A DNA stretch of 64,000 nucleotides, from IMG/VR virus record IMGVR_UViG_3300006217_000002; one strand, written 5' to 3'. The stretch is from a virus (lineage: Duplodnaviria; Heunggongvirae; Uroviricota; Caudoviricetes). Made by a program: the position numbers and the translations under genes. Shown piece by piece: positions 1 to 48,400 of the stretch (position 1 is its first letter; every line of letters starts with the position of its first letter). The notes under the pieces were generated by a model. It ran no database searches and had not been told where the DNA came from. It saw nothing but the letters and a program-made list of their open reading frames with translations.

Positions 1-1
1 T

Positions 2-130
2 GAATACTTAATATTCATGGTAATGACAATGTTATCAGGTAATAATATTATCAATACATCTGCTTCGGATATTGTCAAAGAGACTAAAGGTATAAAAGAT
101 TTAAGAGGAGAACTATTAAAGTTAATTTGA
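2..130 (+). CDS. 3' end of a gene truncated by the window edge (EYLIFMVMTMLSG...ELLKLI*)
   Basis: Open frame from base 2 to TGA at 128-130, followed by the RBS of the next gene. Confidence 0.7.
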   Translation, partial: EYLIFMVMTMLSGNNIINTSASDIVKETKGIKDLRGELLKLI

Positions 131-152
131 TAAGGAAGGAGATTTTTTAATA

Positions 153-464
153 ATGAATAAAACTCAAAGATTAGTAGGAAAGTTTGATATTCCTGAGGAA
201 TTAGCGAAAGAGCTTTCTGAATTACTCACAAAGCAAACTATCAGAACAAATATGTTACTTCAGGTACTCGATGATACTGATAAATATGAAAGTATCGAAA
301 ACAAGTTAATTCCAATTACATCGAGAATTGAAGCTATTAAGATCAGGATCACGAATGAATTTGTTCCTGCAGAATTCAATTCAATGAAATATGTATGGAA
401 TTATGACGGTTGGGAAGTAGCTGGTACAACAGTCAATGTGTTTGAAACTGTATATCAAAATTAA
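153..464 (+). CDS. 103-aa protein, candidate CXXX-repeat modification system accessory protein
   Basis: AAGGAG RBS. Size, N-terminal RLVGK, helical middle and C-terminal VP...W-x-YD recall the small accessory proteins of CXXX-repeat rSAM loci (by eye); lies next to the Cys-rich gene. Confidence 0.5.
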   Translation: MNKTQRLVGKFDIPEELAKELSELLTKQTIRTNMLLQVLDDTDKYESIENKLIPITSRIEAIKIRITNEFVPAEFNSMKYVWNYDGWEVAGTTVNVFETVYQN

Positions 465-472
465 ACAAAAGA

Positions 473-507
473 ATATTCAAGGGGAGGATCATCCTCCCCT
501 TGAATAT
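473..507. terminator. Bidirectional intrinsic terminator hairpin
   Basis: ATATTCAAGGGGAGGAT-C-ATCCTCCCCTTGAATAT between convergent genes. Confidence 0.8.
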
Positions 508-509
508 AT

Positions 510-647
510 TTATTTATTCTTTTCTTTATTTTTCTTTGAAGAATTTTTATTTTTATCTTCCAGAGCTCTCTTTGTAATGCTGGATTCTTTATTATAAAAT
601 TCTTCAACGTTAACATGTTTCACATATATGTCGTATAATATTCCCAT
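510..647 (-). CDS. 45-aa hypothetical protein (MGILYDIYVKHV...)
   Basis: Hand-translated; GGGAGAGG RBS; below the ORF-track cutoff. Confidence 0.6.
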   Translation of the reverse strand: MGILYDIYVKHVNVEEFYNKESSITKRALEDKNKNSSKKNKEKNK

Positions 648-658
648 CTTTCCTCTCC

Positions 659-952
659 CTAAATTTCAACTACGATAATTGGTTTGTTTAAAATTGCGGA
701 TATTCCAAAAATAGTAGTATTTAATTTGGGGTGAGCATCTATACTTTCTCTCATTAATGCTTCTTTTATGACTTTATTTCTCACAGATATGTTTTCTCTT
801 TCATATTCTTCATATCCATTGCAAAACATTTTGTCTATATTTACTGCATTAATATGAAAATAAAATTCTCCAGCTTGTTCCTTAGTATAGATATTTTCAG
901 GAATTTCTTCGTATAAAACCTCCTTAATATTACTCATTGAAATCACCTCCAT
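659..952 (-). CDS. Hypothetical protein
   Basis: 97-aa ORF translationally coupled to the Cys-rich gene. Confidence 0.7.
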   Translation of the reverse strand: MEVISMSNIKEVLYEEIPENIYTKEQAGEFYFHINAVNIDKMFCNGYEEYERENISVRNKVIKEALMRESIDAHPKLNTTIFGISAILNKPIIVVEI

Positions 953-3879
953 TAAATCTCTTCATATTCACTGATATCCATAGGTTTAGTGGAAGTAGGT
1001 TTTTCATCGTTTTTCAGAATAGCTTTAACTCTTGAAATAGGTATTACTGATAATAGATCTCCGTTGATAGTGGCATATCGCCTTTCATCTTGAGATTCAA
1101 CTACAATATTACCATTAGCAATATCTTTTATAATATCTTTAGGTATTGGCTCTATAGTTATATCATTCGCTGTAACTGGCATTGTAGGAAGAGCATATTT
1201 GAATCCATTAATGATTTTCATTACGTCTTCTGAATCAATTGGTATCAAATATCTTTCCATATCAGTGTCACGAAGCATTGTAACATGACGTTGAATAATA
1301 TATACCATATCTCCATCTTTATTATACAATGGACCTATTGTTTCAAATCCCCAAGGAAGTTTACTTTCTACATCTTCAGGAAGTAAAGGTATATCAGGAT
1401 TATTATAAACGCGGACTACAAATATACCTCTATTACCATCTAATGACGGTTTAGCTTCTGGTATTTCAGCTGCTAAGAAATCTTCATTAATAGAAATATC
1501 TCCGATTTCAGAATCTACATTCCATACTCCACCTATTAATGTAGTTGCGTATGTAACCCAAGTTAATCCATCTACACAAATCACTTCAAGGTTAAGTTTG
1601 TCATTAAATGTTATAAGGACCTTAGGATTAGTAGGTTCAGGTACTGGTTTCTTATAAGGAAGAATATCTGTATATATCTTAAATGATTCTCTTTCTTCCC
1701 ATCTATTCTTTGGATGAGGGTAAATATATCCATTAGCTATTGGATCTCTTTCAGGACCAGGAGTCTTAGTTGGTTCGCTCTTTAAAAATGTTGAGCAACT
1801 TCCAGAGCATGTGTTAATGCATACATTTGAACAATCACTTGCACATCCTCTATTACACGTAATATCACACCAGTAACTACACATGTTAGAACATGTAGAA
1901 CATCCATTTTCGCATTTAACTGAGCATACTCCTATACACATACCTACACATGAATAGCATAGATTAGAACATCCTCCACATTCCTCCGTACAAGAATGAA
2001 CACAGTTAGTTTCACATGAATGCTCACAAGTTGCTGTACATGTAATGTTACATGCTGCTCCACATCCGTTAGAACATTCTGAAACACATGGACCGCATTG
2101 CCAACCACACGAATTTACACAACTACTACATGTAGAAGAACATGCATCTTCACATAATGATGTACAAGATGAACTCATACAAGATAGTCTACAATTAGAA
2201 TCACAAGCTCCAGCATTATCAATACCACATATAGATCTACATCCCCATCCTACACAATTAGAATTACAATCATTTTGGCACATCCCTGTACATATATTAT
2301 TACATGCATGAAATGAAGCTTTATCTTTACATTCATCTTTACAATCGTTAATACATGTATCTTCACATCCCGATCCACAATGTGTAGAGCATTGATAAGC
2401 ACAATTATCCGAACATGTTTGTTTACAAGCGGAATAGCAAGTATGAATACATGTACCTTCGCAAACTCCTTTACATTCTCCTACACAGTTTATGGTACAA
2501 CCGCCTGAACAGCCTCTACCTTTTCCTGATTTAAATTCTCCAGAGTTTTCAGAAGCATTATCGATACATCCACCGTAACAAGAAGTAGAACAAGAATTTG
2601 TACACGAAGTAAAACATTTACTCATACAATCAGCATCCCAACATGTAGTTTTCTTGTTAGGATAGAATTGACATGTATAAGAACATCCCTGGCATGTATA
2701 GTATGTTGATTCTATATGATTAGAAGCATATTCTCCATTATGTCCGCCCTTTGTATAGATCTTTACTGTTTTAGCTCCAGCTTTTAAACATGAATATCCA
2801 GATGTATTTTCACATTTTGTTTTACAAGAAGAATAGCACATAGTACTACATCCTGTACAAAGGTTTCCACAACTAGATGTACATGCGTTTCCGCATCTAT
2901 TCCAACAAGTAGTACTACACGATTCTGAACATTCATTATCACATGTTTGATAACATAAGCCTGTACATGCAACGTTACATGATGTTCTAACTCCTCCTTT
3001 TACAGGTCTTGAAACATACATGTTTCCCATCTCTGGGTTTCGTGGATTAGGACCATATGATGATGATTTCACTCCACCCTGAGTGATATGAGTTCTTTCG
3101 TCCTTTCGATCATGACCTTGGTCATTCCAATCTCTATCCACAATAGGAGATATAAAAGGATTATAAGGATGGAAATCTCCATCACCAGGTTTTGCTCCAT
3201 AATCGTCATAAAAATTTTTCTCATTTAATCCTTCAAATTCTAATGCTTCTTCTCCATCACTTTCTCCAGATGGCATTACATATTGACCATTTTCCATAGG
3301 ATATGTTATATTTACATTCTCCGGATATCTTGGATTTCTGTAATCAGTAATATTACCATTAGGATCCGGCTTTACAGGAGATAAATCTGATTCTGAAAGA
3401 GGTTTATTTAACTCACTAGCTTCAGCTGCTATTAGTGCCTCCTCTATACCATTGGGATCTCTGAAAGCTGTATATTCAACCTCATCTCTTCCATAGAATA
3501 AATTAATATCCTGAATCTTTGATAATCCTACCAAAAAGTTTCTCATTTCATCAAATGACATTTTAGCTGCAGATGTATTAGGAACACTAGTTTCATCACT
3601 AGGATCCTCACCAGCTGGATTTTCTCCTCTGTCAGGATATAACACATTCTTAGTTTTTTCAATAGATCCATCTGATGGATTATTGATAGTATACGTTTTT
3701 TCATTAACAGGAAATCTATCACCTATTTCTGGTATTGATAACGGAGAAGATTTATCTTGACCAACAGATGGAGTAGTTAATGGATCCCACCACTTAAAAG
3801 TTCCTCTACGCTGGATTTCCTGATTTAATCGTTTTTTAATTTCTGTAAATTCTGTATTTGACCATAAATTATTATTCAA
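952..3879 (-). CDS. 975-aa protein with a central CXXX-repeat (about 85 Cys) region; putative radical-SAM modification target
   Basis: About 400-aa core of C-x3-C / C-x2-C repeats, flanked by an N-terminal acidic/Pro-rich region (about 295 aa) and a C-terminal globular-looking region (about 270 aa); GGAGGTG RBS. Confidence 0.85.
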   Translation of the reverse strand: MNNNLWSNTEFTEIKKRLNQEIQRRGTFKWWDPLTTPSVGQDKSSPLSIPEIGDRFPVNEKTYTINNPSDGSIEKTKNVLYPDRGENPAGEDPSDETSVPNTSAAKMSFDEMRNFLVGLSKIQDINLFYGRDEVEYTAFRDPNGIEEALIAAEASELNKPLSESDLSPVKPDPNGNITDYRNPRYPENVNITYPMENGQYVMPSGESDGEEALEFEGLNEKNFYDDYGAKPGDGDFHPYNPFISPIVDRDWNDQGHDRKDERTHITQGGVKSSSYGPNPRNPEMGNMYVSRPVKGGVRTSCNVACTGLCYQTCDNECSESCSTTCWNRCGNACTSSCGNLCTGCSTMCYSSCKTKCENTSGYSCLKAGAKTVKIYTKGGHNGEYASNHIESTYYTCQGCSYTCQFYPNKKTTCWDADCMSKCFTSCTNSCSTSCYGGCIDNASENSGEFKSGKGRGCSGGCTINCVGECKGVCEGTCIHTCYSACKQTCSDNCAYQCSTHCGSGCEDTCINDCKDECKDKASFHACNNICTGMCQNDCNSNCVGWGCRSICGIDNAGACDSNCRLSCMSSSCTSLCEDACSSTCSSCVNSCGWQCGPCVSECSNGCGAACNITCTATCEHSCETNCVHSCTEECGGCSNLCYSCVGMCIGVCSVKCENGCSTCSNMCSYWCDITCNRGCASDCSNVCINTCSGSCSTFLKSEPTKTPGPERDPIANGYIYPHPKNRWEERESFKIYTDILPYKKPVPEPTNPKVLITFNDKLNLEVICVDGLTWVTYATTLIGGVWNVDSEIGDISINEDFLAAEIPEAKPSLDGNRGIFVVRVYNNPDIPLLPEDVESKLPWGFETIGPLYNKDGDMVYIIQRHVTMLRDTDMERYLIPIDSEDVMKIINGFKYALPTMPVTANDITIEPIPKDIIKDIANGNIVVESQDERRYATINGDLLSVIPISRVKAILKNDEKPTSTKPMDISEYEEI
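1786..2982 (-). repeat. Cys-x3 periodic repeat tract (protein level)
   Basis: SCNVACTGLCYQTC...CINTCSGSCSTF; 85 Cys by manual count. Confidence 0.95.
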
Positions 3880-3995
3880 TTAAATCACCTCCATAGATTT
3901 AAATCTTTAATAAATCGTTGAATTAAATAATAGATACAATCTAATAAGCTGAGAAGTATAAGCTTTATCCTATAAACTGAAAGGAGATAATTAAA

Positions 3996-4277
3996 ATGGC
4001 TAAGACTAACTTTAATGATCTTATCAAAGAAGATCCAGAACTGGCAGCAGGTATTCTTCAGAACTCTTTTATTCATGTCGTGAATAATATGATTCCGAAT
4101 ATCTATCTTACTAAAGAGGAATACAAACAGCTTGTAGGGATTATTCTTGCAGGTAATGCTAAAGATCCTGATGAAGTAGAAGGTTCTGAAAACTCTGGAA
4201 ATGAGGGTGGAGAAGATCCTAGCGATCCTAAAGAACCTGTGAAAGAGGAAGGTGGCGGAGACGTTACTACCGAATAA
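3996..4277 (+). CDS. 93-aa hypothetical protein with acidic Gly/Glu tail
   Basis: AAGGAG RBS; codon usage like other highly expressed genes here. Confidence 0.8.
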   Translation: MAKTNFNDLIKEDPELAAGILQNSFIHVVNNMIPNIYLTKEEYKQLVGIILAGNAKDPDEVEGSENSGNEGGEDPSDPKEPVKEEGGGDVTTE

Positions 4278-4315
4278 GGAAGTACCTCCGTAAACTATAA
4301 TCCGGTTAGGATTAA

Positions 4316-4349
4316 AATATGATGGAGGGGAATTCCCCTCCATCATATT
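4316..4349. terminator. Perfect 34-bp palindrome, bidirectional terminator
   Basis: AATATGATGGAGGGGAA|TTCCCCTCCATCATATT between convergent genes. Confidence 0.8.
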
Positions 4350-6168
4350 ATTCTTTATTTTTATTTTCAATTACGCTTATCATCGCATATGATTCTAATG
4401 CTTTAAGTAAATTTAGTTCGTCTTCATCAATAACTAGAAGAGCCCACTTATCCGGAACATTATTCTTTCTAACACTTAAATTATATTCAGGATGTTTGAT
4501 ACATAAAGCATTCCAGTAATATACGTTTGCCAATGCTTCAGCAATCATCTGAATGCAAGTAAACATTGTTTTCTTATTAAGAACACCATATGTTTGATAA
4601 CCTAAAGCTGAACAAGCAGCACAATCATTTGAAATTGGGCATTCATAACAAATATCATTTGATTGAGCTCTCCTAGTATTCCTATCAAGTTCAAATAATA
4701 TTTTTGACTCATCACTTCTCTCTATCATTCCAGTATTAACATTGCCTATACTCATATTGGGAAGATCGTCTCCAACTGATGTAGGCATATATCTAATACA
4801 AGGATAGAAATCTCCATTCGGTCTCATAGATAACATACTAGCAGATCCCCCTCCACAGAAGTTGCTATCCTGTGACGGATCCATCATATCTTCCTGACGT
4901 TCGTTGAATATAGCTATATAAAGATTTTCAAGATTATTATCAAGGATATAATCTGCTAGTTTTTTCAATTGCTCATATTCTATCAATGCAGTTTTTTGAT
5001 TCCATCCCTCTTCAAATACACAGTTAATATTTATAACTGACATCCCATTATTAATGAAATCAACTACTGAATCAAATAGGTATGATATATTAGATGGAGC
5101 TAAAGTCATTTTAGAATTTCTTTCTGGAGTAAAATGTTCATTGAAATGATTTAATGCTGCCATACTTATATCATAGCTTCCTTCACCATTAGGTTGAATT
5201 CTGCAAGAATCATGAAGTTCTTTATTTCCATCAATAGAAATATTAAATGACACTTGAGATACGTAGTCTTTAAAAAACTGCTGTACATTGTCATTGAAAT
5301 ATTGGAGCCCATTAGAGCATATAGATAGCCTATGGAATGTAAACCATGGATGATTTAATTCATAGCATCTATCAAGAAAATATTCATAAATCTGTCTAGT
5401 TAAATCAATTTCTAATAGAGGTTCTCCTCCAATAAATTCGATAATGACAGCTGGAGAATTATATCTATTAATATATCCATAATCATCATTAAGAAGATGA
5501 TCGATAAACTTTTTAGCAGTTTCGAAATTCATTCTTGCTGGAGTTTTATTACATTGATAGCAATATGTACATGATAACGAACATGCTTCAGTTGTTTGGA
5601 ATGTAAAGTTATGAACAAATACATCTTTATCGTCACCTACACCAAGATGAGATTGGTGTTTATTTTCAAATAATTCAGGAAATGCTTTAGCTATTCCATC
5701 GTTATATGAATCAGTAAAAAACCTAAAATATTCATTTGGAAACATATTAAACGGTTTAGATGAATAGATTATATTATCTACATATTCCAAGTATTCTTTA
5801 TTTTCAGATACAAGTACCATTGTGAATTTAACATAAGATGTATCAATAATAACATCCTTTGCTAATACATCTTTGATATCTTCAAGATGATAAGGATCTG
5901 GTATAGTAATAATTTCAGTTAAAAAATTATATAAAAATATACCAAAATATTTCCTTATTTCTAATCCTTTATTTGTAAATTCTGCTTTAAGATCATCAAC
6001 TTTATCAATATCTCTATTATGTTTAATCATATATTTCAATCTAAACATAATAGCATCTATTTCGATAGATAATCTGTCTAATCTGTAATCACCAAATGTA
6101 TCAAGCATATATTTATCAAATTGAATTTTATATAATTTGACATCTTTTTCTAATTTAAAAGCTTTCAT
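4348..6168 (-). CDS. Radical SAM/SPASM peptide maturase, CXXX-repeat target family, with about 190-aa N-terminal extension
   Basis: CxxxCxxC (TEACSLSCTYCYQ), IEFIGGEPLL, SIDGNKELHDSCR, SPASM Cys set (FCGGG...FYPCIRY...CYECPISNDCAACS...TC). ATG at 6168 with AAGGAG preferred over TTG at 6186. Confidence 0.9.
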   Translation of the reverse strand: MKAFKLEKDVKLYKIQFDKYMLDTFGDYRLDRLSIEIDAIMFRLKYMIKHNRDIDKVDDLKAEFTNKGLEIRKYFGIFLYNFLTEIITIPDPYHLEDIKDVLAKDVIIDTSYVKFTMVLVSENKEYLEYVDNIIYSSKPFNMFPNEYFRFFTDSYNDGIAKAFPELFENKHQSHLGVGDDKDVFVHNFTFQTTEACSLSCTYCYQCNKTPARMNFETAKKFIDHLLNDDYGYINRYNSPAVIIEFIGGEPLLEIDLTRQIYEYFLDRCYELNHPWFTFHRLSICSNGLQYFNDNVQQFFKDYVSQVSFNISIDGNKELHDSCRIQPNGEGSYDISMAALNHFNEHFTPERNSKMTLAPSNISYLFDSVVDFINNGMSVININCVFEEGWNQKTALIEYEQLKKLADYILDNNLENLYIAIFNERQEDMMDPSQDSNFCGGGSASMLSMRPNGDFYPCIRYMPTSVGDDLPNMSIGNVNTGMIERSDESKILFELDRNTRRAQSNDICYECPISNDCAACSALGYQTYGVLNKKTMFTCIQMIAEALANVYYWNALCIKHPEYNLSVRKNNVPDKWALLVIDEDELNLLKALESYAMISVIENKNKE

Positions 6169-6224
6169 TATATTAACTCCTTTCAAAGAATATTTATAAA
6201 GCTAGTGATTATAAAATGTAAAAT

Positions 6225-6259
6225 AATTATAAGGGGGATATAATATCCCCCTTATAATT
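6225..6259. terminator. Intrinsic terminator hairpin
   Basis: AATTATAAGGGGGATAT-A-ATATCCCCCTTATAATT directly after the stop of 6260..7792. Confidence 0.8.
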
Positions 6260-7792
6260 TTATAAACCGAGTTTACTTCTTAGAATAGGTACTAGTTTAT
6301 CAGCTAATTCTTCTAAGGTTATTTCGTTAGCACTATTCCCACTAGCATCTATCGTATTGCCAATAATAGTATTATATGAACATGCCATATGTCTAGGTAA
6401 TACAATCTTATCCTGAAGATGCCTTCTTGCGATAGCTCTGCTAATTATATGATTTTCATGAACTGATTGATCCCACAACTCATTTTCAGTTACCCATTCA
6501 AGATATGCTAACCTCTGTAATCCTGCAACTCTAACGTCATCTGACATTGTAGATTCATCGTCATTCACATAGAAACGAATAGAACCATGAGAAGTTCCAG
6601 ATATCATAGTAATCTTTGTTATCATCCCAAATCCATCAATATCTTCTTTACTGTAATAATTATTTAGGAACCCAGGAAATGCTGATTCGACAGCTTTACC
6701 TAATTCCATAGCCATGTTATCAGAGTTTAAGATTTCACTTATAACAGTAGGCATATTAATAGACATTCCATTGATAGAGTCTATAAAATGATTATCATTG
6801 TATTTGGTATAAGTTCCCAAAGTAGAATAATCCCATGAATAAGTTCCATCAGTATTCTTTCTACAAATAGCAATCTCATCATGAGAGGTAACTCCCTTAC
6901 GAATTATATACATCTTTCTATGATATTTAACACTTGCTTCAGGAAGATCATCTCTACTATCAATGACAGTAATATCATCAATCCAATCATGAATATCAGG
7001 AAGAGTACTTTTAAAATGATCAAGACGGTAATCCATATAATCAACTAATGCTCTCGATGATGGATATGTTTCATATGTCACTCTACTATCGTCCAACATT
7101 GTTGAAAGCTTATTCGATACATTTTCTTTTTTATCGAATAAATTTATATGAGCCTGAGGATCATCATAATGCAATGCTGCAGTTCCTAATGTTCCTTCAA
7201 GTCTATCTTCTAAAGTGTTATGAAGATCATCTACATAATTCCATAGTGTAGATAGACTTCTTCTAATATCAGTATGAACTGTATTCTTAGTTGATAGATT
7301 ATGAAGATCAATCAATCTTAAAATAAATGCTTCTAATGCATCATTAAGATTTAATTGATCAATAGTTACGCCATGAGGATTATTGTTGTCAGTAAGATGC
7401 TTATAAAGATCTTCAAGATTCATTTCAAAATCATAATCCTGAAGAATATTCATGATAGTTTCTCTTTGAATGTCAGATAATGGTTTATCTTTATCAGATG
7501 TATTATCTACATTTCCTAAACCAATAGTCTCTGGAGTAATAATAACATCATCTGTCATTCCATTAACACTAGTAACTGGAAATACAATAGTACCTCTTCC
7601 TCCTGTAATAATTTCTTGTCTTAAATCAGCAATGATTTCCCTAAGATTTTTCTTTTCTGGGCTTAATTGATCAAATACTTGATCAAGTATAGTCGCAGGC
7701 CATACTGTATCCATTTTAGATGTATTAGGATTAGATTCATCTTCTAGTACATATAGATCTCTAGGAAGATCATCTCTATATCTATCAGACAT
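6260..7792 (-). CDS. Putative virion structural protein (tail fibre/baseplate-associated)
   Basis: Typical fibre motifs VTSVNGMT, GLGNVDNTSDKDKP, HLTDNNNPHGVT. Confidence 0.65.
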   Translation of the reverse strand: MSDRYRDDLPRDLYVLEDESNPNTSKMDTVWPATILDQVFDQLSPEKKNLREIIADLRQEIITGGRGTIVFPVTSVNGMTDDVIITPETIGLGNVDNTSDKDKPLSDIQRETIMNILQDYDFEMNLEDLYKHLTDNNNPHGVTIDQLNLNDALEAFILRLIDLHNLSTKNTVHTDIRRSLSTLWNYVDDLHNTLEDRLEGTLGTAALHYDDPQAHINLFDKKENVSNKLSTMLDDSRVTYETYPSSRALVDYMDYRLDHFKSTLPDIHDWIDDITVIDSRDDLPEASVKYHRKMYIIRKGVTSHDEIAICRKNTDGTYSWDYSTLGTYTKYNDNHFIDSINGMSINMPTVISEILNSDNMAMELGKAVESAFPGFLNNYYSKEDIDGFGMITKITMISGTSHGSIRFYVNDDESTMSDDVRVAGLQRLAYLEWVTENELWDQSVHENHIISRAIARRHLQDKIVLPRHMACSYNTIIGNTIDASGNSANEITLEELADKLVPILRSKLGL

Positions 7793-7869
7793 AATAACTT
7801 CCTCCTTTTCTTTAATATAATATCCTTAACGTTCATTATAACTTTCGTTCAATATAGCATAGGTGTAAT

Positions 7870-7879
7870 TATATATTAT
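7870..7879 (+). promoter_or_regulatory. TATATATTAT putative phage promoter motif
   Basis: Exact copy about 33 nt upstream of 7912. Confidence 0.6.
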
Positions 7880-7911
7880 ATCTGAAATAAATAGAAAGGA
7901 GTAATGTTATT

Positions 7912-8256
7912 ATGCTACTTACAAAACCTGATGCAATTAAATTCGATAGTACTAGAGATATAGTTGATTATGTCTCCAAAGGTCTTCCGCCGACAAAGAA
8001 AAACTATACAGCTCTGATGAACAGTGTTCATGCTCCAACTGCTAATGCTGCAGAAACAAAAAATGGAGCAGTGTTTATTGATGAGCAACTCTTCATCAAT
8101 TGTGACAAAGAAACTTTTGAAGCTGTATTAGACCAGATCTATGAAAATCGCATCCGTAATCGTAATATCGCTATTGGTATCGGAGCAGCAGCTGTTGTTG
8201 GATTAGTCTTCGGAATTCATAAACATAATGAAAAAGAAAATGAAGATGAAGATTAA
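7912..8256 (+). CDS. Hypothetical protein with C-terminal transmembrane helix
   Basis: IAIGIGAAAVVGLVFGI hydrophobic segment; AAGGAG RBS. Confidence 0.8.
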   Translation: MLLTKPDAIKFDSTRDIVDYVSKGLPPTKKNYTALMNSVHAPTANAAETKNGAVFIDEQLFINCDKETFEAVLDQIYENRIRNRNIAIGIGAAAVVGLVFGIHKHNEKENEDED

Positions 8257-8266
8257 ATAACAACGG

Positions 8267-8297
8267 ATAATAGGGGCTTGTAACAAGCCCCTATTAT
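8267..8297. terminator. Bidirectional terminator hairpin
   Basis: ATAATAGGGGCTTGT-A-ACAAGCCCCTATTAT plus T tract. Confidence 0.8.
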
Positions 8298-8300
8298 TTT

Positions 8301-8435
8301 TTATTCATTTTCCGTCTCATTTAACATTGTGATATATGTGTCGCATTTGTCTCTATTTCTACATTCTTCACATTTATCAAGAGTAACATACTCACCAGGA
8401 TCAAGTTCACATGGAAACTTTTCAGGATTTCTCAA
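8301..8435 (-). CDS. 44-aa four-Cys miniprotein (MRNPEKFPCELDPGEYVTLDKCEECRNRDKCDTYITMLNETENE)
   Basis: Hand-translated; TTG start with GAGGTG RBS; C-x12-C-x2-C-x5-C; directly downstream of the QueC-like gene. Confidence 0.65.
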   Translation of the reverse strand: MRNPEKFPCELDPGEYVTLDKCEECRNRDKCDTYITMLNETENE

Positions 8436-8455
8436 TATTATCACCTCATTTATAT

Positions 8456-9271
8456 CTACTCCTCTTTTTTAACATCATGTATGTTAACAGAACTTATTTC
8501 GGAATATTTTACATCTTCAGAATTATTTAGTTTTTCTAACTGTCTAGTAGCAAATTCTTTGATATATGTTGGAGAATTATTTAATCCATCAATCAAACAT
8601 CTTAGTGCCGATAAATGAGTTTTACACGGATCGCATTTCTTACAAGGTTCATTAACATCATTAGGCATTTCACAGAACCATGTTGTATCATAAATATCAT
8701 AATTGATTAGTCTTTCAATAACATCTCGTTTAGTAAAAGCAAGATAAGGCTCTCTGAAATGTAAATCTCTACATAGAGTGCCTGAAATACCTTCAAGCAT
8801 TTTATGATACTCTTCAAGTTTTATATTAAGCTGATCTTCTTGTATTGCTCCTGTATATACATAATCACCGCTTGAACAATATAAAGGTATACTTAATGCC
8901 CATATTACAGCTTGACCAAATCCTGCATTACTTATGTATACTCCACCATTTAGATCATTTTCATTTATAACGATTTCTTTATGTGTAAATGATCCATATT
9001 TAGGACCTTTTAGATCCATCTTTGACTTAAATAACTGCCTATGCAATCTTTCACTTTCAATTTTATTTTTAGTTAAATATGGCATAATGTATGATATTGC
9101 TACAACTTTATCAGATCCATATGCATCTAATAGTTCATATAAAAGTAAAGTAGAATCACATCCACCACTCCACATAACAAAATGTTTAGAATTACTTTCT
9201 GTATTTTGATAAGATGTTGATATGTGATTCATATTTGGTTTAAATGGTAAATATATACCTTTTTCTATCAT
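8456..9271 (-). CDS. Divergent QueC-like PP-loop ATPase
   Basis: SGGCDST PP-loop; C-terminal Zn motif WFC-x8-CxxCxxC; lacks the canonical QueC VPxRN and YPDCR motifs. Confidence 0.75.
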   Translation of the reverse strand: MIEKGIYLPFKPNMNHISTSYQNTESNSKHFVMWSGGCDSTLLLYELLDAYGSDKVVAISYIMPYLTKNKIESERLHRQLFKSKMDLKGPKYGSFTHKEIVINENDLNGGVYISNAGFGQAVIWALSIPLYCSSGDYVYTGAIQEDQLNIKLEEYHKMLEGISGTLCRDLHFREPYLAFTKRDVIERLINYDIYDTTWFCEMPNDVNEPCKKCDPCKTHLSALRCLIDGLNNSPTYIKEFATRQLEKLNNSEDVKYSEISSVNIHDVKKEE

Positions 9272-9296
9272 TTATTATTATCCTCCTTGAAAAAAT

Positions 9297-9326
9297 ATAA
9301 GAGGGAGCAATCACGCTCCCTCTTAT
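9297..9326. terminator. Terminator hairpin, core identical to 42377-42398
   Basis: ATAAGAGGGAGC-AATCAC-GCTCCCTCTTAT. Confidence 0.8.
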
Positions 9327-42411: not shown

Positions 42412-45400
42412 TTAATCAAGATCATATACTACAGGATTACGAACAATTCTACTTAGTCTATTATCTGAATCAATCTTAAGCAGATTTACATCAGTTACGT
42501 TATAAGCTGCTTCATCGAGATTATGAACTCTTATACCAAATTCATCGTAAAGTCTAGTTGCCATACCATACCATACATCATCGCTAATAATAGTATGCGT
42601 TGGAACCTTACCTTTACTTATTTCATCTGACCACTCTTCATTCAAAAGATTAACAATATCACTGTTAGTCAATGGAGTAAATCCAAAGTGTTCAAAAGTC
42701 ATATTCCTATCAGCAATAGGTTTACCTTCCAATGTAGGAGTGTCGATAATGATATACTGATATACTGGCATTTCAAGTTCTTCTAAAGGATAATCTTCCT
42801 CTTCAACTCTTTGAAGTATATCCTCTTCAACGTCAACGTTAGGAGGATAATTCTTATATTCAGGATGATCTCTTTCAACTTGTTTCCAGACAGGAGTTAG
42901 TAGATATTCTTGTTCCTCTTCGGTATAGTTATCACCTTTTAGAGTTCCTTCAAGAGCGTCATCAAGATATGTATTGAAATCCCAATTAGCTCTATTCTTG
43001 TTACCGCTCTGCTCAACTCCTAAGAAGTTATCACTGAAGTATTCATTTGGATCTCTGTTTATTTCAACTATTTCAAAATTCCTCAGTGATTTTAAACCAT
43101 GTAAAAATAATTTCGTTGGTGTTATAATTGTTACTTCATCATCAAGCAGTCTTCCATTTAGCCAAAACTCAAAATATTTCTTGCTCAAAGGTTTATTAAG
43201 TTTACCCTTTAAATCAATGAATCCAGAACTTGAAATTCTCCTTTGAACATAAACTGATTTCATTGGATATGGAACCGCATGAACTTCAAAATGCTCATAT
43301 TTTTTGTAGAGGTTTAAGAAAGTTACATCTGTACCTGTTTCATTTTCTACTACATTCAAAGTAGGTTTATTTGTCGATGGATTGATAATTGGAAAACGTC
43401 CTCTGTCTGTAACTGCATACAATCTATCGGCTTGAATGTTTACATCTTTAAGTGTGAAAGTAGGAGACATGATCCATCTCGGTTCAACAAACGTCCACTG
43501 CTTAGGAGACTTAGATATGATAACATCATAAGTTCCTCTCGTCGTTAGATTATATTTACAAATAATTTTGAATTCCTTAGGAAGTGGAGCAAACCTGTTA
43601 GTTACATTATGAATATATCCATCTCCAAATACTTCAACACACTCAGTATGAAATTCCATCATTACTTTACCTACTTGACGAGCTGATTGAGATTCATTTT
43701 GATAAACTAAAAATTCTAATGAAATATCTTCTTTAGGAGGATTAGGACAATGCAGAGGAATGAAAGAACTTAATGATCCTCCATTTATAGGATTAGTTGT
43801 AACTTGAGCAAATACATGAATTCCATACTCAGCATTCCAGCACCATACATTTCCGTCAACAAATCCATCACCTGCATTAGATATTAAACTCTTGATGATT
43901 TTTGTTTGTGTCTCAAAACCTCTCTGAACATATTCGTCGCTTTTAAATCTAACTTCAAATAATCTTGTATCTAAAAGATTTTCAAATCGTCCAGCATTTC
44001 TATTGTAAATCTTAACATCTTCCAAATGAATTTCATTCTTGAAGTGCATATAATTAGCAATCTTGAAATTCATTTCATAACCAAGAGATGTACCGTCATC
44101 GTCGTGACCTATTACAAATGTTTCTCTCTGTTCATACGGGAATAATTTTCTTATACGAAGATGTCTACCAGTGTTAATTGATATATTTAGAGGTTTAGTG
44201 TTAATTTCTTTATACAATGAAGATTCAATGTCAAGTACTGCGTTTTTCTTTAATGCAGCATTTCTAACTTGTGTTTCAGGAACTTTATTAAGATATAAAA
44301 TCATATCATATGTGAAAGCTCCTTCTTCCATCAATGTCAGTTTGAATCCCCAATGTTTATTTTCCTCATCTTCGTAAATATCAAGTTTCCATCTATCGTA
44401 ATCATACAGGTCTTCCCATTTTTTAGTTGTAAAATTAAATACAGAAAGATCTTTTAATTTCAGATCATGAATGTATGTTGTATGATTCATCTTTGGTTCA
44501 ACATCATGAAGAACTCTTTTATCATTTATGGATCGTTGAATTGCTATAAATGTTTTAGATGTTCTCCAAGGAGCTTCTGGATATTGTGCATGATTTGTAG
44601 GTATATCAGGATAGAAATCACAGTTCATCCAATCTACATCAAATGAAGCCCATTTCATATCAGCTATTTCAGGAGTATCAAATACAAAATATCCTGCTGC
44701 TACAAATGATCTTAATCTATACATCATTCTGTGACCATTGTTTGTTTCATCACATTCAACTACTACCGTTTTACCGATTTTAGCTTCTAGCCAATCGTTA
44801 ATGTGTTTAGGTATATCATTATATGTTGCAACAGTTAGATCTGGTTTCTCCATAGCTGTATTTCTTAGTGTAAAATCAAATATTGCAGTTACATCATTAC
44901 TGATAATTTCATTATCATAAAATAGTCCTGTAGGTGCTGCTGTAGGTAATAAGAGACCATTCATGATATCAGAAACATTACCAGCTTCAATTGGTTCAAT
45001 TATTGCTTCAGATGTCTCCATAATACCAGATGGTACAGCTTCTTTATTACCTGATACTATTCCTGATACATTTTCATCAGGTATACGTTCCAAAGTTTTT
45101 CCTTCAATAATTAGAGGAGGATTTTCACGAAGCTTAATGTCATCATCTATGAACTTAATGATCTCTTCTATAGAAGAAGCTGATATAGGAGATATTTCTC
45201 TTGATGTAACATCATCACTAGAATCGTGTAATCTCAGTTGTGATATTCTCTGATATTCCCCAGTTACAGGAAGCTTGGTAGGCAATCTTCTATCATCTGG
45301 TATAAACGGATGAGTAGGAGGAATCAAATTCATAACACCGTTCCATCTGTGTTTATCTTTCATAGGAACTTGAGAATTATCAACTCTACTTCCTAAATAC

Positions 45401-48400
45401 CAATGACTATCAGGATCACCAGTTTCTGCACCACCTTCGGGCATTTCAACATCTGTGTACATGAAAGTTTTGTTTCTGTCTCCATCTTCAAGATCATCAA
45501 ACCTCCTAGATGTAAAGTTATAAATTTCTCCATCATAAGATAGAGTTGAAGGTTTCTCAATACCATCAGGTGGAATTTGATCATAATAACCAACGTTGTA
45601 CTCGTCGTCAATATTATTCAATGAGTCAGTTGCTACTCTTGCATATGAAGACGAAGGATTAGTGCTTTTAAATAATGCATTAGAAGAACTTAAATCAATC
45701 TTGGCAATACCTTTAAATGGAGTATCGTCAAGCTTATCAATTCTAACTTTCACTGCAGCATTACCAGTATCAACATAAATACTTTGACCTACTGCATATC
45801 CAGCACCAGGTTCTACAACGTCAGCCTTGTCAAGTTTATAGATAAAATAGTGCTCTCCATCTTTAAATATAGATGAATTCTTTAGTTCCATAACGTCATT
45901 TGCTTTAAGATAAATTATATCTATATTACTAGGATGGAGCGGATCATCACTTGTTACATGGCGGATAACAAAATCTCTTATCTGTTTTCCATCATAGAAT
46001 ACTTCATATCCAAGATCTAAATCATGTATATTTTCAAACTTGAACATGAATAAATCATTCTCGTTAAATTGAGGAGGTAGTATTTTATCAGAAGTTTCAT
46101 CAAAGAACATAGATGAGTTTTTCATGCTAATTTCTTCAGTTGCAATATTGAGAATACACCCTGTTCCTTCCCCAACACGAGTACTCATTTCCCTTGTACC
46201 ATGAATAGAATAAGGTAAAGCATAATTCATTAATGGATTTACTTTCAATACTCCACCGTCTTCACTTACTTGTGTTACTTGATATAGGATAATATCATTG
46301 AATATAATATCTTCATCATCCTTTATAGGATTACCGAATTGATCATGTGGTAATTCAGGGATTATTTCAAATATATCTCCAACTTTATATCCTTTACCAT
46401 TTTCTGCTATCGTTGTATTTCTAATTCTGAACCAAGTATCTTTATACATCTCTGCAGGAAATTGAATCATTTTATCTTCTATATCTTTTACAGATAAACA
46501 TATTGATTCACCTTCATCAGGAAGAGTTTTTATGATATTAATAGTATCATCTATAATAGAAATAATACTTTCATACTTACTGATCAACTCTTCAGACTTA
46601 CTTCTTCGAAGAATATTTTTATAAAAACTCTTAATCTTCGATTTAGCATTTTTAAGAAGATCAACTAGTTCTTCTGCATTTGTCCAATTGCTTCCGTTTG
46701 AATAAAACGTACAAAGATTATTATAACTTATTCTTACTTGATCATCATAATAGAAATAATTTCCAGTTAGCAGATTATTCTCCCTGAAGAATTTGTATGA
46801 TTCTATAGTAAGATTTTCAATAGAGTTCAATAATGTTCCTATATCAATATCCATTCTAGTTTCAATAAATCCTTCAAGATCATCGATGATGAAATTTAAT
46901 GATTCGATTACATCTGATACGTCATCTTTTATATCTGACATATATTCAGAATAGAACGATAATAAATCATTCCATTCATTATTTATTTCTCTAATGTCAT
47001 CAATGATAAGTTGCATCTCTCTATTGTTATAAGGATTAATCATAGAGAGATTTCTTTTAATTCTATAAATACTTCCATTGATTCTAATTATGAATCTCGA
47101 TATTATTTCATCATTGATAACTTTAGTATGAGTTGATTTTGTTGCGTGGAATGTTATTCCCAATCCGGTTCCATTTGTTACACTGTCATACACACTCTTC
47201 TGAATACAAGGGTCTCTAAAGGTTGTATTTCTATAACCAAGTTCGGATATAGCTGTTACTTTTCCAATATTTTCATCAACCTCTGTAATTCTGTAAGATC
47301 CTAAACCAGGAACAAATATTACTTCTCCAAGCTTATTCATAAATCCACCACTAACCATTTCAATTTCATCAATCTGATATATATCAGAATATGTCGGTAA
47401 TGACGGATCTGGTGTAAATGGCTCATTGACAGTATTCATATATTCAATAACAGCATCAAGAAGTTCACTATATTTATCCATAAGATTTAAAAAATCATTT
47501 GGAAGTTTAGTTACTTCAATAATTCTGTCGAATACTGTTTTTTCCATATATAGATAACTTAGCCAATCATTACATCCTCTATTTGCACCACTTAATGACT
47601 CCATCGCAGAATCTTTGTTATTAGTTCCTGCAATATACGATAATGCTTCGAGTATTCCAGCTAAACTAGATTCTATAGCATCAGCATAAGTAATCTCTGT
47701 ATCGCTGATATTATATTCTTTCATCTCAGCTAAGATATTTCTTATTTTATCAAAATCATTAAGCATATCATTACGAGCAGCCATATAGTTATCTACACTG
47801 GCATAGAGTTGTTCTATGAGGTACTCTGTATGATCAAGTCTATCGATAAGAGTTTGATCTTCTTTACCTCCAGCTTGCCAGTATTTATTTATTACTTCAC
47901 GAAGATCTAATACGTCTTTTTTTACAGTATTTACTTGCTCTACAAACTCAGCTACTTCTTTCTCATTATATGATTTACTAGGAATAAAATTACCATATAG
48001 AACTACTGTTGATGTGAATAATCTATTCCTAATCTCTTTGACTTCGTCTGGCCATGAGTTACTTCCAAACGAGTTAATATATCCTAATAAACTCATGTCA
48101 TCTGGGTTTTTCTTATCGTAATCATTATATGACCTAAGATCGTTTGTGGCTCTCATAAATCCAGGCATATCGAATGATTGAATCATCTCCGAGATTTTGT
48201 TAATATGCCTTTCAAGTAAAGTATTGACGATATAACTAAGTTCCTCATGAAGTTTCATTTTTTCCGGGTAACACATTTTCATCATAGCGTCATTGTAGAC
48301 CATAGACATCAATCTCTTAATCCGTTCCATTAAATCATTATGATTAAGAAGAGCTTTAATGATTTCATTAATATCTTCAATAGAATAGATTTCAAGATCA

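Follow-up and report, generated by a model that had tools for sequence, protein, structure and literature searches.

A radical-SAM maturase and a 975-residue Cys-ladder protein as a candidate cross-linking system of gut jumbo phages

Closest described systems

Thioether chemistry by radical S-adenosylmethionine (rSAM) enzymes, of the type that acts on peptides made by ribosomes and modified after translation (RiPPs), has so far been regarded as a small-peptide route. CteB, the SCIFF maturase, and PapB, of freyrasin, are ranthipeptide thioether synthases with a three-cluster rSAM/SPASM architecture and with Cys as the donor; their substrates are peptides of ~45-50 residues that contain 6 Cys and have Thr, Asp or Glu as defined acceptors. 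Here we describe two genes of the IMG/VR virus record IMGVR_UViG_3300006217_000002, analysed as a stretch of 64,000 nucleotides (the window), which encode a 606-residue rSAM/SPASM enzyme and a 975-residue protein that contains a ladder of 85 Cys, and we compare this pair with the systems that most resemble it.

The closest family description is the CXXX-repeat system of NCBIfam/TIGRFAMs, in which TIGR04115, a radical SAM peptide maturase of the CXXX-repeat target family with a curated cutoff of 350 bits, is accompanied by targets of the families TIGR04114, TIGR04117 and TIGR04118 and of PF27846. The phage pair has an enzyme of the same rSAM clade, the same S/T/G/N-rich C-x-x-x repeat and the same pairing of genes. 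It differs in that the phage rSAM scores below the family cutoff and has a folded N-terminal extension of ~170 residues, in that the ladder lies between a 300-residue N-domain and a variable C-domain, and in that this version is encoded by a jumbo phage. Size also sets it apart, since the curated targets have 46-98 residues against 975 here and, inteins included, up to ~1560 in relatives. The initial annotation of this stretch had described the precursors of such maturases as normally short; this is true of the curated targets, but other phage targets described below range from 175 to more than 399 residues. A literature search found no experimental paper on the CXXX-repeat rSAM system, nor any on a version from phages.

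The nearest experimental precedent is CrpC/CrpA of Methanococcus voltae, in which the SPASM rSAM CrpC (TIGR04463) installs ranthionine links in the 28.8-kDa Cys-rich protein CrpA, as determined by mass spectrometry (PMC13692751, September 2026). With this study radical-SAM thioether chemistry was first shown biochemically on a real protein, in 2026. The authors stress that validation of ranthionine links on large proteins is still limited. As in the phage pair, a SPASM rSAM acts on a Cys-rich repeat protein and not on a short peptide, and CrpA has a conserved N-terminus that resembles a leader, along with a small companion encoded with it. However, CrpC belongs to another rSAM family, CrpA consists of a 17-residue motif repeated 10 times with C-x-x-Q/D acceptors, and the system belongs to an archaeal cell, has no viral context and is suspected of a role related to metal.

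The cultured Salmonella jumbo phage SPN3US (NC_027402; locus L046), on whose system no publication was found, has a phage-encoded SPASM rSAM beside two CxxxC open reading frames (ORFs) of 133 and 134 residues with 20-21 Cys, and a virion structural protein, a DUF4376 protein and a tail assembly chaperone are encoded nearby. Unlike the pair in the window, SPN3US has two rSAM genes, its rSAM is 24% identical to that of the window, its targets are small, with ~50-residue leaders and no C-terminal domain, and its host is a facultative anaerobe. The 133-residue ORF (L046 4085-4483; 21 Cys, 17 CxxxC) is unannotated and lies between a virion structural protein and gp100, which is itself the 134-residue CxxxC protein, annotated with a shorter start. 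Both ORFs are just upstream of the two rSAM genes (gp102/gp103 region).

The maturase, its putative substrate and their coupling

Comparison across relatives suggests that these jumbo phages chemically cross-link a large, probably tail-associated protein. More precisely, the two genes would form a conserved system consisting of a TIGR04115-type rSAM and a 975-residue substrate, with a stapled product that is most likely associated with the tail; we give this reading as a whole a probability of about 0.55. That the 975-residue protein is a substrate of the adjacent rSAM is the firmest part, and we consider it very probable.

The maturase gene (4348-6168, minus strand) begins with an ATG at 6168 after an AAAGGAG ribosome-binding site (RBS). 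Residues ~190-560 of the product form the rSAM catalytic domain, and residues 1 to ~170 a folded extension that is specific to the clade; more distant relatives, of 420-460 residues, are without it. The CxxxCxxC motif and SPASM cysteines reported for this ORF in the initial annotation are all present: C196/C200/C203, and C438, C457, C507, C510, C516, C519 and C538, are invariant or nearly so among 56 aligned homologues. The best NCBIfam family is TIGR04115 (342.7 bits, E 3e-102, aligned over 3-359 of 359 positions), with a lead of ~190 bits over the next; PapB (153 bits), CcpM (100), QhpD (92), SCIFF/CteB (86) and anSME (63) follow, and TIGR04463, the CrpC type, gives 58.5 bits against a cutoff of 525. 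An orthologue with 56% identity (P0245) reaches 355 bits, above the TIGR04115 cutoff, and more distant relatives (34-48% identity) reach 373-425 bits. By these scores the phage clade falls in or at the edge of TIGR04115 and not in a housekeeping or sulfatase-maturase clade, which bears out the CXXX-repeat family that the initial annotation had named for this enzyme.

The AlphaFold2 (AF2) model of the enzyme is confident (mean predicted local distance difference test score, pLDDT, 90.7), and the N-terminal extension of ~170 residues is folded in it as well. The closest solved fold is thioether-forming CteB (5WHY, E 1e-16), despite a sequence identity of 21% or less, and anSME, ChlB, SkfB, SuiB and EpeE are further significant matches. 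PapB is thus the second-best family by sequence and CteB the best match by fold; both carry an N-terminal RiPP recognition element, with which we do not equate the extension of the phage enzyme.

The gene for the putative target (952-3879, minus strand) starts with a TTG behind a GGAGGTGA RBS, 468 bp from the rSAM gene, which is upstream. The tripartite build reported earlier, a full-size protein whose core lies between two non-Cys domains, is clearly seen: an N-terminal domain (residues 1-300; 2980-3879, minus strand), the Cys-ladder core (residues 301-704; 1768-2979, minus strand) and a C-terminal region (residues 705-975; 952-1767, minus strand) consisting of a conserved linker and then a hypervariable domain. 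The protein has 86 Cys, 85 of them inside the 404 residues of the core, and from one Cys to the next the spacing is exactly CxxxC in 68 of 85 gaps and CxxC in 7, in agreement with the ~85 Cys in CX3/CX2 spacing, ~470 bp from the enzyme, that had been noted. Positions x1-x3 of the units are mostly S, T, N and G, the same composition as in the small targets that lie beside rSAMs in other loci (L012, L013, L014 and L045). As a sequence pattern the ladder is far beyond chance.

A word-indexed search with the N-domain yielded 137 clusters of homologues (700-1560 residues, the upper end with inteins), all of which (137/137) carry a precomputed match to the Pfam family PF27846, 'rSAM target Cxxx repeat'. 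Aligned across 107 homologues, every one of the 85 core Cys is more than 90% conserved, unlike the sole Cys outside the core. Identity computed in windows is 0.42-0.72 over the N-domain and 0.40-0.87 over the core; the short linker is conserved up to RWEERESFK (~735), and beyond residue 750 identity falls to 0.03-0.34 with many gaps. Irregularities of the ladder (the CxxC steps, a beta-hairpin insert and a FYPNKKT-CWD segment) are kept position by position, and the core contains no tandem array at the DNA level. Taken together, the conserved Cys, the retained irregularities and the lack of a DNA repeat indicate that the core is old and constrained and is not drifting low-complexity sequence. 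AF2 gives no confident fold for the core (pLDDT 25-45), as expected if its structure depends on post-translational links; the N-domain is modelled with moderate confidence, residues 751-869 as a small beta-rich domain (pLDDT 60-84), and the whole protein with low confidence (pLDDT 48.9).

The two genes stay together across relatives. In ~15 distinct related jumbo-phage contigs the rSAM gene is directly upstream of and co-directional with the target gene, at a spacing that in several of them shrinks to 29 bp (as in L003) or to an overlap (as in L007/L009). The order in these contigs is a 510-residue fibre-like gene, the rSAM gene, an optional small gene, the target gene, a 92-residue gene and a convergent 103-residue gene. 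In a subclade this arrangement is broken, and three of its genomes have the pair unlinked: the rSAM and target genes are 87 kb apart in G003 (289 kb, CheckV-complete), 62 kb apart in G004 (289 kb, terminal repeats) and 45 kb apart in G005 (179 kb, 66% complete). Even so, exactly one TIGR04115-type rSAM and one target were found in each of the six whole phage records searched, five of which are CheckV-complete and one 66% complete. One gene without the other, an arrangement that would speak against the pairing, occurred in 0/6. Retention of both genes when they are unlinked is stronger evidence for a presumed functional dependence than adjacency is.

CxxxC proteins also lie beside rSAMs of 24-46% identity in unrelated phage contigs. 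The targets in these lineages include a 197-residue protein with 22 Cys (L012), one of at least 200 residues with 25 Cys (L014), one of at least 399 residues with a 325-residue N-domain (L044) and a leader-bearing protein of 218 residues in a 155-kb phage contig (L045). By eye alignment, the 975-residue protein and the targets of L012, L014, L044 and L045, small and large, share an N-terminal helix motif, approximately [FY]-x-E-[IL]-x3-[LIV]-x2-E-[IC]-x-R-R, located 100-300 residues before the ladder; in the 975-residue protein it occupies residues ~8-25 of the N-domain (EFTEIKKRLNQEIQRR). The motif is consistent with a leader-like recognition element. What is particular to the pair in the window is the size and tripartite build of the target, its 85 invariant Cys, the extension of the enzyme and the joint retention of the genes when unlinked.

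Some further features of these systems were seen on the way. L045 has a second ORF (L045:8067-9068), split by the gene caller, which encodes 334 residues with 82 Cys in nearly pure CxxxC spacing with internal tandem repeats and no leader, and which scores 28.5 bits to TIGR04114. In L013, a contig filed as 'Bacteriophage sp.', a 175-residue CxxxC target (L013:2219-2743; 32 Cys; TIGR04117, 43.5 bits) with a twin-arginine-like signal, SRREFFK..., is encoded directly upstream of an rSAM of 35% identity; this looks like a bacterial, exported version of the system. Two genomes that are more divergent (L041:5965-8934 and L043:5992-9350) encode the giant target in two ORFs, one after the other: the N-domain and the initial half of the ladder fall in the first, the second has a new start and continues with the remaining half, and the variable C-terminal domain is absent. 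The genome of L041 (G006, IMG/VR, 246 kb, complete) additionally encodes three more SPASM-type rSAM paralogues at ~16.9-21.2 kb, directly upstream of the main rSAM, with 107-127 bits to TIGR04115.

Inteins are frequent in both proteins. The best 120 clusters of rSAM relatives are 62-95% identical to the window enzyme and come from contigs of up to 297 kb; inteins interrupt the C196-x3-C200-x2-C203 motif in 44 of them, and others sit at the SPASM residues C438 (11 clusters) and C519 (3). In the target, inteins lie directly before core cysteines, at residues ~305, 321, 493, 637 and 652. It is unusual for inteins to sit at Fe-S ligands of a radical-SAM enzyme and also in its presumed substrate, and their location at catalytic, SPASM and core Cys points to strong functional constraint.

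Location and chemistry of the product

A possible course of events can be proposed. In the anoxic host cytoplasm the enzyme would recognise its target, perhaps through the conserved N-terminal helix or domain of the latter and the clade-specific N-terminal extension of the former. Chemistry with a 5'-deoxyadenosyl radical would then modify the 85-Cys ladder, and the most likely product, by analogy with CteB, PapB, QhpD and CrpC, would be many intramolecular thioether bridges from Cys sulphur to carbon. In this way an otherwise unfoldable 400-residue segment of S, T, G, N and C might become a covalently stapled rod or knot, so that the product would have its N-domain, which is conserved, in the proximal position, followed by a stapled shaft and then by a C-terminal tip that can be exchanged, and might serve as a tail-associated structural or host-recognition protein, with the co-travelling 92-residue protein as a partner or chaperone. 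Thioethers would survive in particles that are assembled in a reducing cytoplasm and used in the anoxic gut, for which disulfides would not be reliable.

Should this be true, the 975-residue protein would exceed all known RiPP-like substrates in size and would be the first virion protein with an architecture that comes from radical-SAM cross-linking, its thioethers being a covalent substitute for disulfides suited to an anoxic, reducing gut. It would also give the uncharacterised TIGR04115 family a first biological role, and it would offer protein engineering a natural scaffold in the form of a Cys ladder with exchangeable tip domains. Provided that the cross-links and the place in the tail are both confirmed, these phages would show a new way of building a virion, in which an enzyme staples a host-recognition fibre covalently. 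Because SPN3US is a cultured phage with a small version of the system, the idea is testable now.

A number of observations weigh against this picture. On the side of family assignment, the rSAM is 7 bits short of the curated TIGR04115 cutoff (342.7 versus 350). The target gives zero matches to TIGR04114, a repeat model of 18 positions, and to TIGR04117 even at E<=10, and a weak one to TIGR04118 (19.1 bits versus a cutoff of 35), while the PF27846 matches of its homologues are flagged faint wherever graded; it would work like the targets of the CXXX-repeat family, yet it is not a curated member. The target itself has no Pfam match, its sole PHROG match is phrog_6085, a family of unknown function, and none of its domains matches a known fibre, tail or virion family or fold. 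A Foldseek search of its model against PDB and BFVD returned nothing at E<0.001, and VIA-align (wide) gave a best Z of 5.0 and nothing above noise; given the low confidence of the model, the lack of a fold match is uninformative. Acceptor residues such as D/E/Q, known from PapB or CrpA substrates, have no fixed counterpart in the C-x-x-x units, which leaves the type of link unpredictable. The neighbours of the module are a mix that includes a QueC-like enzyme and membrane proteins, and not a clean tail operon. Finally, two rSAM-bearing contigs (L001 and L023), from the subclade with the broken gene arrangement, have no target within 8-10 kb.

The location of the product is where the alternatives are strongest. 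The enzyme-substrate pair might be real and its product non-structural, made during infection and not a component of virion or tail; it could bind metal or buffer redox changes, assist host takeover or counter defences, or be released as a RiPP-like product after cleavage of a giant precursor. The missing homology and fold match to any virion protein and the QueC-like and membrane-protein neighbours fit such a product, as do the suspected metal binding of CrpA, the characterised precedent, and the twin-arginine-like signal of the bacterial-type target in L013, which would be exported and not placed in a virion. Against it stands the recurrence of tail or tail-fibre genes, which adjoin the system in no fewer than five independent arrangements or lineages. 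In the window the neighbour is the 510-residue protein; where the target has moved, it is next to a tail-fibre gene again, in L040 (1387 residues, phrog_892, E 3e-45) and in L032; and where the rSAM has moved, in L001, it is beside Phage_fiber_rpt and Collar proteins. L012 has a phrog_5302 tail protein (E 3e-77) next to the system, and tail or tail-fibre genes adjoin it in L044 and SPN3US too. The conserved N-terminal and hypervariable C-terminal parts, together with the mosaicism of strains in the distal half described below, are typical of host-recognition proteins. Moreover, no protease or exporter gene travels with the pair: peptidase and ABC/MFS exporter families are absent from the module genes and conserved neighbours, and judged from gene content the locus thus differs from a classical RiPP cluster with its protease and exporter. 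On balance we regard a non-structural product as unlikely, though it survives better than the other alternatives.

The layout of the target resembles that of a fibre in its conserved proximal part, its rod-like middle, its hypervariable C-terminus, the small gene that always follows and the tail genes nearby, but such a layout is typical of fibres and not exclusive to them. The structural or receptor-binding role proposed in the initial annotation is plausible but only circumstantial; the conserved-N/variable-C build and the tail-fibre neighbours in several lineages speak for it, and neither fibre-domain homology nor a fold match does. The mosaicism is a weak hint of a host-recognition role. 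For a virion or tail location in general we see the chances as even, and the fully specified version, a tail-fibre-like virion protein with a 400-residue shaft built by dozens of thioether staples, up to about 85, is offered only tentatively, as somewhat doubtful.

As for the chemistry, thioether bridging is modestly favoured, by analogy with characterised enzymes. The rSAM could instead act on the ladder in another way, for example by oxidation of Cys to formylglycine as in the anSME type, by epimerisation, by C-C or C-O cross-linking of x1-x3, or by S-methylation. No characterised member of TIGR04115 was found in the literature, the units show no conserved acceptor residue, and the significant fold matches include anSME, ChlB, SuiB and EpeE. 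However, the nearest characterised families (PapB, CcpM, QhpD and SCIFF/CteB, all ahead of anSME) are all Cys-thioether synthases, the best structural match is CteB, and Cys, but no other residue, is absolutely conserved, which fits Cys as the reacting partner. Another chemistry is thus clearly improbable. The idea that there is no enzyme-substrate relation, the ladder being a metal-, Fe-S- or disulfide-stabilised repeat, the adjacency conserved gene order only and the rSAM devoted to another substrate (a small unannotated peptide, or a nucleotide or cofactor pathway), can point to the terminator and convergent gene between the two genes in the window, to the 45-87 kb between them in some genomes and to the target-free surroundings of the rSAM in L001 and L023, but it is highly improbable since TIGR04115 is defined by association with exactly this type of repeat, unrelated phages have the pairing too, with rSAMs of 24-46% identity, all whole records searched contain both genes whether linked or not, and a protein that is produced and works in the anoxic, reducing gut would hardly be held together by disulfides.

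Neighbouring genes, hairpins and the host phage

The window is part of a jumbo phage with ~32% GC and encodes a split multisubunit RNA polymerase beta, a PhuZ-like tubulin, a UvsX-like recombinase, and tail and virion proteins. The source of the phage is mouse gut, where it turns up in many public data sets, and its clade is a large one of ~230-300-kb jumbo phages of gut anaerobes. Megablast of the region gave zero matches, as did tblastn of the 975-residue protein against GenBank phages. A 2898-residue ORF (42412-51108, minus strand) has no PHROG match at E<=0.001. When public mouse-gut runs were compared with window positions 1-9300, strains were found to be mosaic across the region. In two runs a single contig matches 1-7511 at ~94% identity, whereas identity is almost complete in the flank 7484-9300, and the breakpoint falls inside the fibre motif of the 510-residue gene; in another run the divergence is confined to 1-2251, which covers the distal half of the target and the downstream genes, with the break inside the target core. 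These patterns suggest modular exchange of the region. Two public 'metatranscriptome' runs span the whole region in 14-21-kb contigs, which look like DNA carry-over, and a third RNA run has short contigs on parts of the target and its neighbours and none on the rSAM, but contigs from RNA libraries cannot show transcription and uncovered stretches prove nothing.

Upstream of the rSAM lies the gene for the 510-residue protein (6260-7792, minus strand), with a tail-fibre N-terminal motif and PHROG matches to tail fibre and minor tail proteins over residues 40-166; an orthologue occupies this place in most linked loci (L003-L043). The N-domain of the target shows no similarity to this protein, and a protein atlas queried with the N- and C-domains of the target gave scores of 0.80 or below, which we treat as leads only. 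In the rearranged locus L001 (5670-6779 and 7210-7825) the rSAM is beside a second, unrelated radical-SAM gene of 369 residues, a holin (Phage_holin_6_1) and a Sequestin-family gene.

Between the two genes of the pair, the convergent gene and 34-bp palindrome noted earlier are both present. The gene (3996-4277, plus strand) has its own RBS and encodes a 93-residue protein with an acidic tail; it is convergent with the rSAM gene and divergent from the target gene. The palindrome (4316-4349) is perfect, forms a terminator-like hairpin that would work in both directions, and overlaps the rSAM stop codon. From these the initial annotation had concluded that the genes are not one operon and are separately timed; the terminator and convergent gene are real in the window, but the conclusion is not general, as the short or negative spacings in relatives show. 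Homologues of the 93-residue gene occur only in L005, L008/10/11 and L032 and are absent in L003, L007 and L022, and we take it to be a variable insert.

Directly after the target is the gene for the 92-residue protein (659-937, minus strand), with a GGAGGTGA RBS before its ATG at 937; it had been listed as 97 residues from an upstream ATG. Its orthologue directly follows the target in every locus, including the genomes in which target and rSAM are unlinked. Covariation of the 92-residue protein with the target (rho 0.53 with the C-domain, 0.75 with the N-domain) is dominated by shared phylogeny, is affected by imperfect ORF picking and is uninformative. The operon closes with a terminator-like hairpin (473-507) that is shared with the convergent gene for a 103-residue protein (153-464, plus strand), and between the 92-residue gene and this hairpin is a lysine-rich ORF of 45 residues, below the 50-residue threshold of the ORF list, with its own RBS (510-647, minus strand).

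The 103-residue gene is conserved, being present in 5/5 genomes, and has no NCBIfam or Pfam match. We considered it as an accessory subunit, but a place in the system lacks support, and we take it to be a conserved core gene of the clade. Comparison with the small companions of other rSAMs by hhalign gave probabilities of 2% and 0.4%, and iterated searches never reached them. In rearranged genomes 10-77 kb separate the gene from the target and 35-164 kb separate it from the rSAM.

The hairpins at 473-507 and 4316-4349 belong to a family of perfect or near-perfect hairpins of 31-35 nt with a G4/C4 core, of which 6225-6259 and 8265-8299 are further members, and these bracket single genes or short operons. 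Altogether nine terminator-like sites were found where 2.5 were expected.

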